Under the pieces are notes generated by a model. That model did no database searches. It saw nothing but the letters and a program-made list of their open reading frames with translations, and had not been told where the DNA came from. Below, piece by piece: positions 4,716 through 63,630 of a DNA stretch of 64,000 nt. A program made the translations under genes and the position numbers. The stretch is from an uncultured Fibrobacterota bacterium. GTDB taxonomy: Bacteria > Fibrobacterota > Chitinivibrionia > Chitinivibrionales > FEN-1185. Location of the stretch: contig CAVWBU010000026.1 of assembly GCA_963753345.1 (NCBI GenBank), positions 228,398-292,397 on the forward strand, in the 5' to 3' direction. The stretch's first letter is position 1. Each line of letters opens with the position of its first letter.

Positions 4716-4845
4716 CAACTAAGTACTATTTACCAAAAATTCTAGAAATTACAGTTGCACATCAATCCATCACGGAGCCATTTTTGAGGGCTGTCGAAAA
4801 TGCGACGCGGGCAAAATTGGTTTATTACTCAGCCGAGAAACGTTT

Positions 4846-52189: not shown

Positions 52190-52322
52190 AAACGCCGGAC
52201 CCAATATGCCTGACTGCGACCGCATTTTCTCTCCGCAAACAACGAATCTTGTATGAAGAACCGGCCACCCGCACGCCAAAGCTGTTTGCAAATGCGGAAG
52301 GTCATGATTGAGCGACGTATTT
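52190..52322 (-). repeat. Degenerate integron attC site A (distal end of the array)
   Basis: The central ~115 bp is nearly identical to the intact attCs. The R'' box is lost and R' is reduced to GTT. Confidence 0.8.
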
Positions 52323-52392
52323 GATGGCAGCGCAAGCAAATTACAGGCATTTGTTCAGGAAGCCCTCAGTAGTTCTCCCAGGCTTCCTGGCA

Positions 52393-53858: not shown

Positions 53859-53963
53859 TTTCAATTGAAACACTGGCCCCTTCGAACAAATACTCTCTTT
53901 GATCATTGTTTATTCCTGTACGGTATTTTAAATTGTTGGTACGTGACAATTAATGCACCACAT

Positions 53964-54099
53964 TCCGGCCGGAGCTAATATGCCTGACTGCGACCGCATT
54001 TTCCCTGCGCAAACCACGAATCTTGTATGAAGAACCAACAACCCGCAAACCAAGGCCGTTTGCAAATGCGGAAGGTCATGATTTAGCGCGTTGTTAGAA
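53964..54099 (-). repeat. attC site B (R' box lost)
   Basis: Minus-strand R'' TTCTAAC with the long consensus body; the GTTRRRY end is replaced by unrelated sequence. Confidence 0.88.
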
Positions 54100-54109
54100 T
54101 GCCTCAATC

Positions 54110-54619
54110 TTATTGTTTTGCAATCCATAAACTGTCGTTCTGATTGAAATGCAAAGAATGAATTGCATATTCCTGAGAGTAGCACAGTTTCAAATTACTG
54201 CACAATCGCCACCCATAGATCGTTTTGACTAATTTGTAAATGCCAGTTCTAGTTTGTTTGTCTTTTATTAATACAAAGCCCTTTGCATCCTGGTCAAGGT
54301 GCGCCAAGAGCAAATACTTGGTTTCTACAAAGGCCGAGTCTGCTTTTATTATTACCTTTGTTATTTCTTCACTTTTGAATAAATCTGCAACATCCCAGCC
54401 GGGTAAACCATTTGGACATAACACTACGGTATCTAGCCATGGATTTGTTTTGCTAAATTCCCCATTCAAATTTCTCTTGATTACTTCCTCAATAATTTGT
54501 CTTGGCTCAATGCCAGTTTCTTTCAACAAAGTTCCACATTGTTTAAATAGAGCAGTGTCGTTAATCTGACAAAGGCTGGAACAAGAAAGAATGCAAATTA
54601 GAAAGGCAACTATTTTCAT
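54110..54619 (-). CDS. Cassette-encoded exported hypothetical protein
   Basis: AT-rich, with an RBS; stop 10 bp before attC B; cassette bounded by GTTAGAATG/CATTCTAAC. Confidence 0.8.
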   Translation of the reverse strand: MKIVAFLICILSCSSLCQINDTALFKQCGTLLKETGIEPRQIIEEVIKRNLNGEFSKTNPWLDTVVLCPNGLPGWDVADLFKSEEITKVIIKADSAFVETKYLLLAHLDQDAKGFVLIKDKQTRTGIYKLVKTIYGWRLCSNLKLCYSQEYAIHSLHFNQNDSLWIAKQ

Positions 54620-54645
54620 CTTTTATTCCTTTTTTTCATTCTAAC

Positions 54646-56479
54646 GAGCCTGTAGAAAAACCCTCTTTTCAATAAAATCGAATTCCCCTTGTGCTCTGTC
54701 AAGTCAATTCGTACTCTTTGCGGAAAGGTAAGAAGGGAAGTTCAGAACTGTCCTGCCGATGGAGTTTCTAAGCGATTTTGAGGCCTTTTTTGCCCCCTAT
54801 CGATGGACAATTCAGCCCTCTGGTCCTTTTCAATGGCCATAGGAAGGTCCATACCGGTAAATCTTGAAGATGTTGTGCACCATCGAATACAGCTTCCATT
54901 GCGTATCGGCCTTTATCCTGCCGCGTAGGGTAATCCGGTCGAGGCCGAGCGTGCGGCAGATGTTGGCGAACACCGGCTCAACCGTGCCCATTCGCCTGCT
55001 GTAAATGTACCTGCCGAATGCGGAGTCGAATTTCGCTATCATCCGTTTGGTATAGGACCCCGTCGATCTTTGGCCGGATTGATCGAACTTCACTACCTGC
55101 CGCCGCTCCGTGTGGTCAAGCCGCAAACACTGCTTTCGAATTTCACACACAAGGCAGTTCGCCTTCTTCCCGGCATAGGCGATCCCGTGTTCGCCATGCT
55201 TCCCGACATAATTCTTGTTCAGCACGTAAAGTTTGTTACCTGCCGGGCACGTGAGCGTGCCGTCGGATTCGTTCATGATAAAATCACTTGGGGTAAAGTA
55301 GTGCTTTGACCGTACAGGCGTCTTGTTGCGGTCAATCGGATTCTTGTGCCGGTCTGCATCGCCAAACCGAGGGTCGCGCTTGCGGAATTTATTGTCCGCA
55401 ACATAACCGTCGACTCCTTCTTCCGCAAGCATCCGCATGTTCGCTTCGCTATGAAAACCGCTGTCCGCAGTGACTTTCGCTTGAGTGAAAATGTCGGGCT
55501 CGCCAATGGCCTCAAAGTTCTCGCGCACTCCATCGACCATCGGTTTCAAAAGAGCGTTATCCGTTCCGTCGCTGAATGCCTCCGCATGCACGATCACCTG
55601 GTGCTTTTCGTCAACCGCTGCCGCGCCGTTGTAGCCCTGAATAACACCGTGCGAACTCGGCATTTTTGCGGTTTCGTTGTCCGTGATATTGCTCTTCTTC
55701 GCCTGTCCTGCAGCACCGACCTTGTCGTCGTTTTTCCGCAGCCAGCGGTCGATCTTGCGGACCTTCGAACGCAGGTGGCTGATCGCTTTCCTCTCCTTCT
55801 TCCTTATATCCTCGCCAAGCTCGCGTTGATCGCACTCCTGGTGTTTACGCAAAAGGAATCGTACCTGGTACTCTATCTTCTTCTTCCGCTTCTCAAAGTC
55901 CTCGCGCGTGCCGCTCCACTCCTTGGCACAGTTCGAAGACATTTTGCAGCCATCAATCGCGAACATCTGGCGGCTGACCAAGCCTTCTTCCGCGCAGTAC
56001 AACAGAATGTCGCGAAAAAGCGGCGTGATCTCCTCGTGCATCGACGAAATAAAATGCGCAATCGTCGTAAAATGCGGCTTGGTATCGGCCGAGAGCGCCA
56101 TGAACATCACGTTCTCCTCGCAGCACCGTGCTACGTCGCGGCTGTGCATGATGCCGCGGGAATAGCCATACAGCACGATCTTGAGCATGATACGAGGATC
56201 GTAGGCCGGTGCGCCGGTCTCGTCGTTGGAAAACCGGCCATCGAAAACTGACAGGTCCAATACATTATCCACGATCTCGCTCAGCGCGAACTCGAAACTG
56301 CCGGGAATAATCTGCTCGCGAAACGTGACGGGGATAAGCTTCCCTTGTTCGTAGGAGTAGTCTTTGTAGCGGGCCATCAGCCGTCCTTCCTTACTAGTAT
56401 CTGTTTACAAATAATATAAGGAAAGAAGGCCGGAATTTCAGACAAAAGTGAGGCGGAAGGGGGCTTTTTCTACAGGCTC
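54646..56479 (-). mobile_element. IS1182-family insertion sequence inserted at the R' core site of attC C
   Basis: Perfect 15-bp terminal inverted repeats GAGCCTGTAGAAAAA, flanked by an AAC direct repeat (54643-54645 and 56480-56482). Confidence 0.92.
54830..56377 (-). CDS. IS1182-family DDE transposase
   Basis: GAPAYDPRIMLKIVLYGY (DUF772-like), AIDG.K, QGYN, ADSGF, CPAG and R...VEPVF. Confidence 0.92.
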   Translation of the reverse strand: MARYKDYSYEQGKLIPVTFREQIIPGSFEFALSEIVDNVLDLSVFDGRFSNDETGAPAYDPRIMLKIVLYGYSRGIMHSRDVARCCEENVMFMALSADTKPHFTTIAHFISSMHEEITPLFRDILLYCAEEGLVSRQMFAIDGCKMSSNCAKEWSGTREDFEKRKKKIEYQVRFLLRKHQECDQRELGEDIRKKERKAISHLRSKVRKIDRWLRKNDDKVGAAGQAKKSNITDNETAKMPSSHGVIQGYNGAAAVDEKHQVIVHAEAFSDGTDNALLKPMVDGVRENFEAIGEPDIFTQAKVTADSGFHSEANMRMLAEEGVDGYVADNKFRKRDPRFGDADRHKNPIDRNKTPVRSKHYFTPSDFIMNESDGTLTCPAGNKLYVLNKNYVGKHGEHGIAYAGKKANCLVCEIRKQCLRLDHTERRQVVKFDQSGQRSTGSYTKRMIAKFDSAFGRYIYSRRMGTVEPVFANICRTLGLDRITLRGRIKADTQWKLYSMVHNIFKIYRYGPSYGH

Positions 56480-56550
56480 AACGCCAACTTAAGCCGCCGG
56501 TAAGACTGCATACCGCAGTAGCCGGTCATGGCTTGAAGTTGTTGTTAGGC
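56480..56550 (-). repeat. attC site C (short type, about 75 bp)
   Basis: Minus strand GCCTAAC-AACAA-CTTCAAGC...GCTTAAG-TTGGC-GTT, the standard R''-L''-L'-R' layout with an extrahelical base. Confidence 0.9.
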
Positions 56551-56825
56551 ATGTCTTCGTATTTTTTGTTTTCTTTTCTTGTCTCTTGCCAATAAGATAC
56601 GCTTCGGAGGATGGGTCCGTCCAGATTTTTCCGATAATCCCTTCATGGTCGCAAAACCGTGGTGACGCTCGTCACATTTTATCGCGGTTGAAGCATTTTC
56701 GCGATTGTCAGATGATATGCCGAATTTTTGGTAAGGGCCTGGTTTTTCCGTTGATTACGTAAAGTCGAGGTTTGCGGCACGGCGCTTGATTTGTTTCTCC
56801 GGTTTCACCCTCCGGAGAACGTGTC

Positions 56826-58259
56826 ATGCCGCAAGCCGCAATTACTTGCCGAAGCCCCGCCGCGCCAAAAGGCAAGGCAGGGTTGCCCCGCAAATTCTAC
56901 CGCCCGCGCGACCATGCCGCTTCGCCCTTTTTCAAGATTGTCCGCGACCGGTTTGACGAGTTCGAGCGCGTGTACCCGGAGCGTTTTCAGCAGCGGTACG
57001 GCTACTGGAGGCCGGTTATACGCTCCTCGATTGACAAATTTCTTAAGTGTGGCGACGTCAAAGAAGGTTTCGCTCGCGTCAAGTGCAAGGACTGCGGGGA
57101 GGAGTTCTTTGTCGCGTTCTCCTGCCGTCAGCGGTCGTGCTGCCCGTCATGCGACCAGAAGCGGGCGCTGCTGCTGGGGCTTCGGCTGCAGGAAGAAGTT
57201 CTGGCTGAGGTTCCACACTTGCAGTGGGTGTTCACTATACCGAAGCGGCTGCGGGTTTACTTCCGCTACGACAGAAAGTTGCTTGGCAAGCTCTGCCGGG
57301 CCGCCTACGATACCGTGTGCGCCGTTTACGCGCTGGAGCTAGACGGCGATTGCGGCGTTCCCGCAATGGTAGGCGCGGTGCAGACGTTCGGCGATCTCAT
57401 TCACTGGCATTCGCATATTCACGCGATAGTGCCCGAGGGCGTGTTCACGGCCACGGGGCATTTTGTGCACATTCCCGACATCTGGCGTCACAGGGCTGCG
57501 GACATCTGGCAGGAGAAGGTGTTTGACCTGATGCTTGACGAGTTCAAGATAGACATCGAGACTGCGGCGAACATGCGGGCGTGGCGGCACTCAGGGTTTA
57601 ACGTGGACCACTCGGTCCGTATCGAGGCCGGAAACCACACGGGCATGCAGCGGCTGGTGGAGTATATCTCCCGGTGCCCGTTCAGCCTCGCACGCATGGT
57701 CACGCTCATGGACAACGGTAAGATTGTGTATCGCGCATCAAAGGGGAAGTGCTTCCCGTTCCCGCACACAGGCGACCCGGTTTTGCCGGAGCGCTGCACG
57801 CCGCCGATTCAGACGCTCATGGAAGGCATACCGCGAAACTTCGAGGTGTTTGACCCGCTCGACTTTCTGGCTGAAGTCACGCAGCATATTCCCAATAAGG
57901 GTGAGCACCAGATACGGTATTATGGTTGGTATTCTAACAAGAAGCGAGGAATGCAGGAAAAAAAGGTTGCCGCGCTAGGGCAGCCGGAGCCGGACACCAC
58001 TTTTAGGCGGAAATGCCGCATGACCTGGGCGGCCTTGATAAAGTGCGTTTACGAGGTAGACCCGCTCAAATGTCCGAAGTGCGGGGGTGAGATGCGGATC
58101 GTCTCGTTCATCGAGCAAGAACTGGTAATTGAGAAGATTCTGAGGCACTGCGGCCTGTGGAAGGAACAGGCGCCGCGCCCGCCGCCGGAAGATAAGTTGC
58201 CGCTCGTCGCCGCAGAACCTACGCTCGAATATGGGTTTTTCGAGAAAACCTGTGCCTGA
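56826..58259 (+). CDS. IS91-family (Y2, rolling-circle) transposase with a Zn-binding domain
   Basis: CGD...GFARVKC..C, FSCRQRSCCPSC, WVFTIPK.LR, QTFG....WHSHIH (HUH), HSGFNV, YISR, IRYYGWYSN and YEVDPL.CP.CGG.M. Confidence 0.92.
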   Translation: MPQAAITCRSPAAPKGKAGLPRKFYRPRDHAASPFFKIVRDRFDEFERVYPERFQQRYGYWRPVIRSSIDKFLKCGDVKEGFARVKCKDCGEEFFVAFSCRQRSCCPSCDQKRALLLGLRLQEEVLAEVPHLQWVFTIPKRLRVYFRYDRKLLGKLCRAAYDTVCAVYALELDGDCGVPAMVGAVQTFGDLIHWHSHIHAIVPEGVFTATGHFVHIPDIWRHRAADIWQEKVFDLMLDEFKIDIETAANMRAWRHSGFNVDHSVRIEAGNHTGMQRLVEYISRCPFSLARMVTLMDNGKIVYRASKGKCFPFPHTGDPVLPERCTPPIQTLMEGIPRNFEVFDPLDFLAEVTQHIPNKGEHQIRYYGWYSNKKRGMQEKKVAALGQPEPDTTFRRKCRMTWAALIKCVYEVDPLKCPKCGGEMRIVSFIEQELVIEKILRHCGLWKEQAPRPPPEDKLPLVAAEPTLEYGFFEKTCA

Positions 58260-58501
58260 CATCCCCGAATATTTTTTTGCTTGCACCGAAGCCACGAGAC
58301 AGGTATTCCCGGATTTGACAATTGTGGGCGAAAACACCTATATTTTCTCGTGAAGCCGTTCAAGGTGCGGACGTCGGGAACGGGAAAGCGGGGCAAGATT
58401 TGAGCGTCTGTAAAGAAACTTTCCTTATACGCCCACTCTCTCGCAAAAAATTAAACTTCCTATCAGTTGCTGCTGCAAATGGAACAACAAAGGAGAATTC
58501 C

Positions 58502-59197
58502 ATGAAAAGCAATGTGTTGCGAATCTGCCGAGGCTTAGCGTGTTATGCCTGCATTCTGTCGGTTTGGCTCATTGCGTCCTGCATGCCGTCGCTGAACTCC
58601 ACCTCAAGCGGGAATACTAATCCTCCTGGAGTTCCTACGGGCGTCCGGATTACGGGTTCAACAATAGCAACGGTTTCTCTGCAGTGGAATACCGTGTCCG
58701 GCGCATCGTCGTACACAGTGTATTATACGCTCGACGGTTCCCATCCTGGCCCGAACAACAGCACCGATTACCTTTCGGACATCACCACCGCCTCGGCGGT
58801 TCTGTCACAGATTGAGTGCTCGGCCGGCCAGCCGATCGAGGTCGCGGTTACCGCGTCCAACGACAATGGAGAAAGCAACGCGAGTGCAATGGTCGCCTGT
58901 TCGACGCTCGTTCCCACGAATGTCGTGGTTACCCCTGCCGACAGCGGCAAATTTGCCGTCACGTGGTCCGCGGTCTCAGGCGCAGCTTCGTACAACGTCT
59001 ACGAGCAGAACAGCGCCATCGATTCGGCCACCGGACCCACGGAATCGAGCTATGGCCAGGAATATACCGGCAAGTCGTCGCCGTTCCACTGGATCAACGC
59101 AGCCAAGGGACATTATTACCACTTCGCAATCTCTGCGGTCGACGCCAGCGGCAACGAGGGCGGGCTGAGCCTGATCGGGAAGGCAGTAGCGCAATAG
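58502..59197 (+). CDS. Lipoprotein with two fibronectin type III domains
   Basis: AAGGAG RBS, lipobox IASC, W..VSGA.SY.VY twice, VTASN..GES. Confidence 0.82.
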   Translation: MKSNVLRICRGLACYACILSVWLIASCMPSLNSTSSGNTNPPGVPTGVRITGSTIATVSLQWNTVSGASSYTVYYTLDGSHPGPNNSTDYLSDITTASAVLSQIECSAGQPIEVAVTASNDNGESNASAMVACSTLVPTNVVVTPADSGKFAVTWSAVSGAASYNVYEQNSAIDSATGPTESSYGQEYTGKSSPFHWINAAKGHYYHFAISAVDASGNEGGLSLIGKAVAQ

Positions 59198-63553: not shown

Positions 63554-63630
63554 CTATAACGTGGCAGTAACATGCCGGTGTATGACTGCATACCGGCTGC
63601 AGCCGGTCATTCTTGACTGCCTTGTTATGT
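63554..63630 (-). repeat. attC site H (short type, 77 bp)
   Basis: Plus strand CTATAAC-GTG-GCAGT...ACTGC-CTT-GTTATGT; shares GACTGCATACCG..AGCCGGTCAT with attC C. Confidence 0.9.

Follow-up and report, generated by a model that had tools for sequence, protein, structure and literature searches.

The subject of this study is an insertion sequence (IS) of the IS1182 family that lies inside an integron cassette array of an uncultured Fibrobacterota bacterium. The window, meaning the whole stretch of DNA that was analysed, comprises 64,000 nucleotides (assembly GCA_963753345.1, contig CAVWBU010000026.1, here C26, positions 228,398 to 292,397), and coordinates given without a contig refer to it. 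The cassette array occupies the minus strand from at least the 52.2-kb position to 64,000, where contig C26 ends. Behind its minus-strand open reading frames (ORFs) stand five complete attC sites of 134-135 nt, two short ones of 71-73 nt and, at the low-coordinate end, two decayed ones. The integron integrase of this genome is encoded on another contig (C18:31088-32026; TIGR02249, 430.6 bits for a cut-off of 265). The IS lies directly behind one of the short attCs, between two copies of the GTT triplet of its R' core:

54646-56479, minus strand: IS1182-family IS of 1,834 bp, delimited by its pair of inverted repeats.
56465-56479, minus strand: left inverted repeat, GAGCCTGTAGAAAAA, whose first bases GAGC make GTTGAGC when read after the GTT.
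54646-54660, minus strand: right inverted repeat, from the sequence and a repeat search.
54830-56377, minus strand: intact DDE transposase gene of 515 aa, co-oriented with the cassettes.
56480-56550, minus strand: attC of the upstream cassette, with R'' GCCTAAC (56550-56544), L'', variable loop, L', spacer GGC and GTT (56482-56480).
56480-56482, minus strand: left copy of the duplicated GTT, that of the R' core, read from the sequence.
54643-54645, minus strand: right copy of the duplicated GTT, likewise.
54639-54645, minus strand: original R' core GTTAGAA, severed from its attC; the next cassette begins (5' end) with this TTAGAA.
54110-54619, minus strand: 169-aa ORF of the downstream cassette, with no Pfam or NCBIfam match.
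53960-54099, minus strand: long attC of the 169-aa cassette, with R'' TTCTAAC (54099-54093), of the repeat family D1-D4; its 3' coordinate is approximate.

Taken as an IS, the element is ordinary. Members of the IS1182 family measure about 1.3-2 kb and carry terminal inverted repeats (ISfinder range), and the window IS falls within this range, with repeats of 23 nt at 87% identity whose outer 15 nt are perfect. Above the respective cut-offs, the transposase matches the Pfam domains DDE_Tnp_1_6 (PF13751), DUF772 (PF05598) and DDE_Tnp_1 (PF01609). The NCBIfam IS1182 model NF033551 is covered from position 3 to 487 of 488 (E 1.8e-78) with a score of 264.6 bits for a cut-off of 270, and by this measure the protein appears to be a divergent IS1182 member or to belong to a sister clade. 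A genome-wide search for further copies found the IS to be a single copy. The unusual part is its clade, with a precise and oriented target at the R' end of attC sites.

On the minus strand, the text across the insertion reads ...GGCTTAAGTTGGC-GTT-[GAGCCTGTAGAAAAA ... TTTTTCTACAGGCTC]-GTT-AGAATG. The attC on the left (56550-56480, 71 nt) has a bulged L stem and is of the short type, like the unoccupied site at 63630-63558. A covariance model, R1, presented below and not trained on this site, matches it with 24.2 bits (E 5e-4); the only other R1 match of the window lies at 63558-63630 (17.6 bits), and both are on the minus strand within the array. With R'' as RYYYAAC, R' as GTTRRRY, the bulged stem and the repetition of such sites behind ORFs of one strand, the target has the features of an attC. 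An earlier note, made from the letters of the window alone, had described an IS flanked by GTT on both sides directly after an attC, and the sequence, the R1 match and the perfect 15-bp repeats bear this out.

The two GTT copies can be traced to a single one. The start of the downstream cassette, TTAGAA, exactly complements R'' (TTCTAAC) of the attC that belongs to it, as it would in the former circle, so the empty site held a single GTT, and a 3-bp target duplication gave rise to the second, in agreement with the earlier note. Its length is three rather than four base pairs because, among the relatives examined below, the terminal C stays with the IS in the 13 of 85 sites where the base before the left GTT (position -4) is not C. 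The crossover of the integrase, which we take to be G|TT, falls within the duplicated triplet, and the IS consequently lies 2 nt beyond the crossover; its placement at the GTT of the R' core was right, its placement exactly at the crossover was not. The transposase gene does precede the next cassette in the same orientation, and the IS and the 169-aa cassette now form one unit between two attCs. The second of these, the long attC at 53960-54099 (minus strand), has no GTT at its 3' end.

The same arrangement is found far beyond this genome. A transposase search of genome contigs gave 35 candidate stretches, 13 of which encode a relative; metagenome contigs searched with an alignment of four sequences provided at least 553 confirmed relatives of 595, the best 80 of which were examined (50-91% amino acid identity). 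The examined set of 13 genome and 80 metagenome contigs (50-92%) was oriented by the transposase gene, and six repeat-like matches, lacking a partner or belonging to an assembly palindrome, were removed before junctions were counted. The inverted repeat is conserved as GAGNCTGTAGRAAAA in all examined relatives, including those of only 50% identity. GTT precedes the left end in 96/99 elements and follows the right end in 88/90, and it is present on both sides at 72 of the 75 sites with both flanks. Past the right GTT the first base is A (66/80) or G (10/80), the second G (46/80) or T (19/80) and the fourth C (42/80), which fits GTTRRRY, and position -4 is a C in 72/85. Since the loci had been oriented by the transposase gene, the constant GTT demonstrates that insertion is orientation-specific. 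Across about 100 elements, insertion position, orientation and GTT duplication are constant.

This constancy extends to tandem and reduced forms. Five loci hold elements in tandem, with seven junctions at which the ends are exactly one GTT apart. At locus L032 a miniature inverted-repeat transposable element (MITE), a full IS and a second MITE follow one another, and as each carries a different repeat variant they represent independent insertions. Nine MITE-like elements of 98-158 bp, from six loci, consist of little beyond the two shared inverted repeats, and they sit, like the tandem elements, at the same GTT spot. The relatives on genome contigs belong to metagenome-assembled genomes (MAGs) of Fibrobacterota, Deltaproteobacteria, Desulfobacteraceae, Bacteroidales, Chitinivibrionales and Nitrospirae. 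Among cultured bacteria, the 1.3-Mb replicon NZ_CP074588.1 of Pseudoalteromonas piscicida carries the nearest match in the plasmid collection, a 1,839-bp element of 42% identity flanked by GTT on both sides inside a plus-oriented attC array (nearby R1 matches of 37.8 and 23.1 bits). Named IS1182-family transposases of that collection are only 26-27% identical to that of the window.

Model R1 was derived from 18 left flanks of loci L022-L059, which align with an R'' of the form RYYYAAC. In this alignment the AAC of R'' and the GTT are invariant, seven of the nine predicted L-stem pairs show compensatory changes, and the bulge is on the 5' arm. Over 53 held-out loci (195 kb), R1 gave 45 matches, 44 of them on the transposase strand, the remaining one being an assembly palindrome. 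The flanks of homologues, which the earlier note had proposed to score for attC, were assessed with this model at the 68 insertion sites outside the training set that had at least 60 nt of left flank. A match with E<=1 ended exactly at the junction in 37 of them (27 at E<=0.01), and an unfiltered search added five, for a total of 42/68; four weaker matches also end at the junction. Another 39 matches lie away from IS junctions, 31 on the plus and eight on the minus strand, and 35 of these appear to be unoccupied attCs of the same contigs. In a quick tree of the relatives (rows L035, L063 and L072 have absurd branch lengths and probably the wrong ORF), R1-positive rows occur in every major clade and the negatives do not cluster. 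Two folding scores did not separate IS sites from controls and carry no weight here: at least 16 terminal pairs in a constrained fold for 55/86 IS sites vs 232/1,500 sampled CGTTA[GT] sites of the window's own genome, and an arm hairpin energy of -14 kcal or lower for 46/86 vs 219/2,011, the latter being all CGTTA[GT] sites of that genome. Most targets across the roughly 100 elements are attC sites of cassette arrays.

What reads the target is best approached in G001, a Fibrobacterota MAG whose IS protein is 92% identical to the window transposase. Seven insertion sites of one IS were found there, with 100% identity between each copy and the query copy where they align (five full length, one interrupted, one partial). 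G001 has no integron integrase above the cut-off (best score 86.9 bits vs 265). One of the seven sites is an attC (R1, 23.5 bits), and the other six have no R1 match at E<=5. All six show WTAR, 6-7 nt, GTT and then A(G/T), a motif that resembles the 3' end of the long attCs of the window (...ATATTAGCGCGGC-GTT-AT). A WTAR-type motif upstream occurs at 138 of the 5,462 GTTA[GT] sites (2.5%) of the element's own genome, and the nominal 3e-10 for six sites is only indicative, since the motif was defined after the sites had been seen. Because these copies sit at attC mimics in a genome without integrase, it is very probably the element's own transposase that reads the target, and transposition itself needs no integron integrase. 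A second IS of the same clade in G001 (L110-L114, on five contigs; five copies of about 1.77 kb, about 68% nucleotide identity) duplicates GTT at non-attC sites of the form GGCTG...T-GTT-G; the triplet is thus constant while its context evolves.

These data bear directly on the idea that the element is a gene cassette with a transposase gene, placed by the integrase, the two GTTs being crossover products. The flanking triplets do coincide with a cassette boundary, and lists of cassette-associated proteins often include transposase genes, according to the available text of a survey (PMC11089894). However, a cassette has its own terminal attC, whereas the ends of the IS are inverted repeats, with no R1 match inside 54646-56479 and hence no attC at the 3' end of the element. 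Those repeats are conserved at 50% protein identity, the MITE-like derivatives are little more than two repeats, and copies of one IS occupy non-attC sites in a genome without integron integrase. We consider this explanation hardly credible.

More serious is the possibility of structure-dependent targeting, in which a stem-loop or cruciform would be recognised and joining would occur at its 3' foot; attCs would then be hit as abundant long palindromes and the motif would be secondary. The GTT of R' is indeed the 3' foot of the attC stem. IS1272, of the IS1182 family, targets inverted-repeat structures and not sequences, as stated in the accessible part of PMC5678879. A canonical 1,596-bp IS1182 member, 27% identical to the window transposase, likewise lies on a Pseudomonas aeruginosa plasmid (NZ_CP132996.1, 1096-2691) in the loop of a terminator-like palindrome with A-tract, GC stem and T-tract, flanked by a TCACT duplication, and illustrates the liking of the family for hairpins. 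Nevertheless, the near-invariant triplet (96/99 and 88/90) differs from IS1272, whose targets share no sequence and undergo no duplication in the same accessible part of PMC5678879. A sequence motif is common to the six non-attC sites of G001, where inspection by eye shows no shared hairpin, and the sister IS duplicates GTT without an attC. Finally, R'', the 5' foot of the same structure, is used in only two loci (L027 and L084) and possibly in one run. Targeting by structure is therefore unlikely in our view, and on balance we lean towards a transposase that reads double-stranded sequence rather than a folded structure.

The preference for R' over R'' can be expressed in bits. A position matrix was built from 66 occupied sites and applied to 33 unoccupied attCs, where R' scores 14.0 bits on average vs 8.7 for R'', and R'' is the higher of the two in only 2/33. 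This gap of about 5 bits, due mostly to C vs T at -4, would be wide enough to produce the bias seen, the R'' end being rarely used (L027, L084 and a contig of run X8, the last by eye). On the same scale the empty site has 13.7 bits, the left junction 10.2 and the right junction -2.0, for a background of GTT sites at -2.8 (99th percentile 8.6). As the left junction outscores the right one and exceeds that percentile, a further element would be expected to land between the attC and the IS already there, which fits the tandems.

The unoccupied attCs of the window that stand beside the occupied one are the following:

63630-63558, minus strand: unoccupied attC of the short type, from repeats and an R1 match.
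63276-63142, 62706-62573, 61260-61127 and 60876-60743, minus strand: unoccupied attCs of the 134-135-nt type, from repeats.

Insertion at R' also has consequences for the attC left behind. The earlier note had suggested that the terminus of the IS rebuilds the GTTRRRY core. The first four bases of the 99 elements are GAGC (35), GAGG (29), GAAG (15), GAGT (7), GAAT (6), GAAC (4), GAGA (2) and GACG (1), so that GTTRRR is kept in 98/99, which upholds the purine part of the suggestion, while the final pyrimidine, and with it the full GTTRRRY, is present in only 52/99. The first four IS bases form on average 2.10 of 4 pairs with the RYYY of R'', for 2.27 with the original neighbour (n=40) and 1.49 +/- 0.13 with random 4-mers; judged by such pairing, the R box is apparently about as good after insertion as before.

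Survivorship offers another way of explaining the pattern: a weakly specific transposase would need only GTT or GTTA, and insertions elsewhere would be purged while those between cassettes are neutral. Inter-cassette insertion disrupts no gene, the upstream logo is like that of unoccupied attCs, and G001 shows that non-attC insertions do occur. Yet many of the 5,462 GTTA[GT] sites of the own genome are intergenic, and the insertions pick R' and almost never the equally neutral R''. All six recent, and presumably unpurged, sites of G001 carry the L'-like motif that has a background of 2.5%, and the tandems show one triplet being used again by different elements. We regard survivorship as very improbable.

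Public sequencing runs give a view of natural populations. A 2.5-kb query, 73% of which is the IS itself, has at least 68% of its sampled words present in nine runs. Peat and sediment are among the sample types that hold the IS. In four runs from three studies, the word depth of the IS contigs is far above that of the flank contigs (122.7 vs 6-20 in run X2), and contigs break off after the IS ends, AAC and 1-4 further shared bases, beyond which the sequence continues in several ways. The loose ends at the left repeat in X1, X2 and X5 (two distinct texts, by eye) equal the plus-strand text of the long attC family of the window (D4), so the IS occupies other attCs of this family in nature. A sole joint, in X2 from 54660 to 56464, was considered as an empty site and rejected, as it belongs to a related element with the same repeats.

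Insertion specific for the R' of attC by the element's own transposase is, in our judgement, very probably the correct account, and the points that weigh against it deserve to be gathered. At 22/68 held-out sites no R1 match ends at the junction even at E<=10; they comprise the six G001 sites, L084 and 15 others, some of which have, by eye, a typical L' box with 5' sequence too short or too divergent. The attC calls rest on our own model, whose training flanks were chosen for attC-like folding, and two energy-based attC scores failed to separate IS sites from random controls. An L' box with C at -4 is also present in 29/35 unoccupied attCs, and much of the target logo may consequently be the attC's own conservation; the position matrix cannot separate this conservation from a preference of the transposase. 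The WTAR motif of the six mimic sites is a post hoc definition. Among the junctions, L084 has AAC/AAC at R'', inverted relative to GTT (the attC there reaching 39.2 bits), L027 is an insertion at the R'' end of a minus-strand attC, and L039 (GAT), L056 (GTC) and L063 (GGT on the right) depart from the triplet. No contig of the public runs spans an empty site or a circle of IS plus cassette, although contigs cannot show absence. With a single genomic copy and no empty-site allele, the activity of the window copy is putative.

In the mechanism that we propose, the window IS would be an active-looking member of a large IS1182-family DDE clade, whose own transposase would insert it at the R' GTT in one orientation, a 3-bp staggered cut duplicating the triplet. 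The transposase would recognise the L' box, a spacer of 6-8 bp that usually ends in C, the GTT and then A or G, and this half-site would be the same one used by the integrase. The earlier idea of an attC-specific DDE element is thus strongly supported by some 100 independent relatives, with the amendment that what is specified is an L'-R' half of about 20 bp rather than the attC itself, six of the seven G001 sites being non-attC. A start with GAR would keep GTTGAR on the upstream attC and leave the left junction as the better target of the two, giving rise to tandems. The IS and the next cassette would make up a composite cassette which the integrase could, in principle, excise and re-insert. 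Cassette arrays may also serve the clade as a safe harbour, as the earlier note proposed. That a phylum-spanning clade of DDE elements reads the half-site of the integrase, keeps its core by means of GAR, and has its IS-plus-cassette units and MITEs spread by integrases is an attractive but rather doubtful extension. Were it true, a transposon would ride the integron as a second mobility, and the clade would be the third independent attC-specific lineage and the first of the DDE type.

Several observations concern the loci examined rather than the targeting itself. Locus L078 was tried as a duplicated IS-plus-cassette unit and rejected, the 99-nt repeat at the end of this metagenome contig being indistinguishable from an assembly repeat: positions 2366-2464 equal 4736-4834 (attC end and IS start), the two attCs are alike except for the first 4 nt of R'', and the repeat may reflect either another IS, inserted in the next attC, or a cycle of the assembly graph. 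In L026 (3040-3474) and L027 (136-1787), attC matches and the IS-adjacent attC of the respective contig are on opposite strands, which may reflect arrays of mixed orientation or insertion at an R'' end. The first 7 kb of contig C8 of G001 (L007, L104-L108) form a large inverted duplication in which IS fragments and an attC are palindromic, either a long-read assembly chimera or a genuine IS-mediated inversion. On contig C29 of G001 (L115, 1499), a decayed IS end with two repeat mismatches and GGT for GTT abuts a long attC of the window type, which suggests kinship between G001 and the window genome, or an integron type common to both.

Within the window, the decayed attC copies nearest the core genes (52190-52325 and 53960-54099, minus strand) lack the R' GTT in one case and R'' in the other, and the low-coordinate end of the array adjoins a GFO/IDH/MocA oxidoreductase gene. 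The minus-strand cassettes are interrupted by an IS91-family transposase gene (Y2, zinc-binding; 56826-58259, plus strand), about 275 bp upstream of the IS-occupied attC, and by the ORF that follows it (58322-59197, plus strand), which has weak, sub-threshold fibronectin-III-like matches. A basic-rich ORF of 34 codons (56546-56650, minus strand, by eye) has its stop codon within the R'' of the IS-occupied attC, and the IS91-type element may have cut its cassette short. Elsewhere in the genome, the top R1 match is G000:C35:44508-44574 (minus strand, 34.6 bits; 150 of 2,018 candidates scored), on a contig distinct from those of the array and of the integrase.

The attC-targeting elements named in the literature, as far as its accessible text goes, are the IS1111 group and group II introns (IIC-attC, and IIB in halophiles). 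The available text of PMC11089894 names only the IS1111 group in this role, and 49% of the cassette-associated transposases are classified there as 'IS5', a proportion left unexplained in that part of the survey. No attC-specific element of the IS1182 family or of any other DDE type was reported in the literature that we searched, which lay outside ISfinder, TnPedia, subscription papers and supplements, and a prior description is possible. The clade is widespread and, as far as this search reached, apparently undescribed as an attC-targeting group. It adds an unrelated DDE lineage to those that target attC, one that appears common in environmental metagenomes, with at least 553 relatives, and that spans Fibrobacterota, Deltaproteobacteria, Bacteroidales, Nitrospirae and Pseudoalteromonas. 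Annotation pipelines count such in-array elements and their MITEs as cassettes or cassette-associated proteins, and the elements may influence how cassettes are expressed and how stable the arrays are. For site-specific transposition they also offer a tractable model, in the form of a DDE transposase that combines an oriented target of about 20 bp with an invariant 3-bp duplication.

Comparison with known systems places the element more precisely. With the IS1182 family it shares the set of transposase domains, the full-length NF033551 match, the size and the terminal repeats. Its target, the foot of the attC palindrome, is in line with the liking for palindromic targets reported for this family (PMC5678879, accessible part), but IS1272 as described there targets structure without motif or duplication, whereas the window clade duplicates an invariant GTT and inserts into attC in a fixed orientation. 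The group IIC-attC introns are another mobile lineage specialised on the attCs of cassette arrays, according to the available text of PMC3001079; they differ as retroelements, with a ribozyme and a reverse transcriptase that have no counterpart in the window element. The IS1202 family (ISAjo2 relatives) resembles the clade by its terminal repeats, single orientation and fixed distance from a tyrosine-recombinase site, dif or pdif (PMC10132070, accessible text). It is set apart by its description as another IS family whose target is a Xer site and not an integron attC.

IS1111-attC elements are not known to make a target duplication. The original papers on them, those of Tetu and Holmes in 2008 and of Post and Hall in 2009, reportedly describe a single orientation. 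The group (IS110/IS1111; ISKpn4, ISPst6, ISPa21) likewise uses one position near the attC end, and its own features are a DEDD transposase, a seekRNA guide, subterminal repeats and circular intermediates (PMC11187229, accessible text). The window clade, which also keeps to one position and one orientation in attC, differs by its IS1182-type DDE transposase, its terminal inverted repeats and its 3-bp GTT duplication, and shows no sign of an RNA guide; the window transposase matches DDE_Tnp_1 and IS1182 models only, with neither the DEDD type nor the seekRNA of the IS1111-attC group. The window element thus works like the IS1111-attC group without being one of its members.

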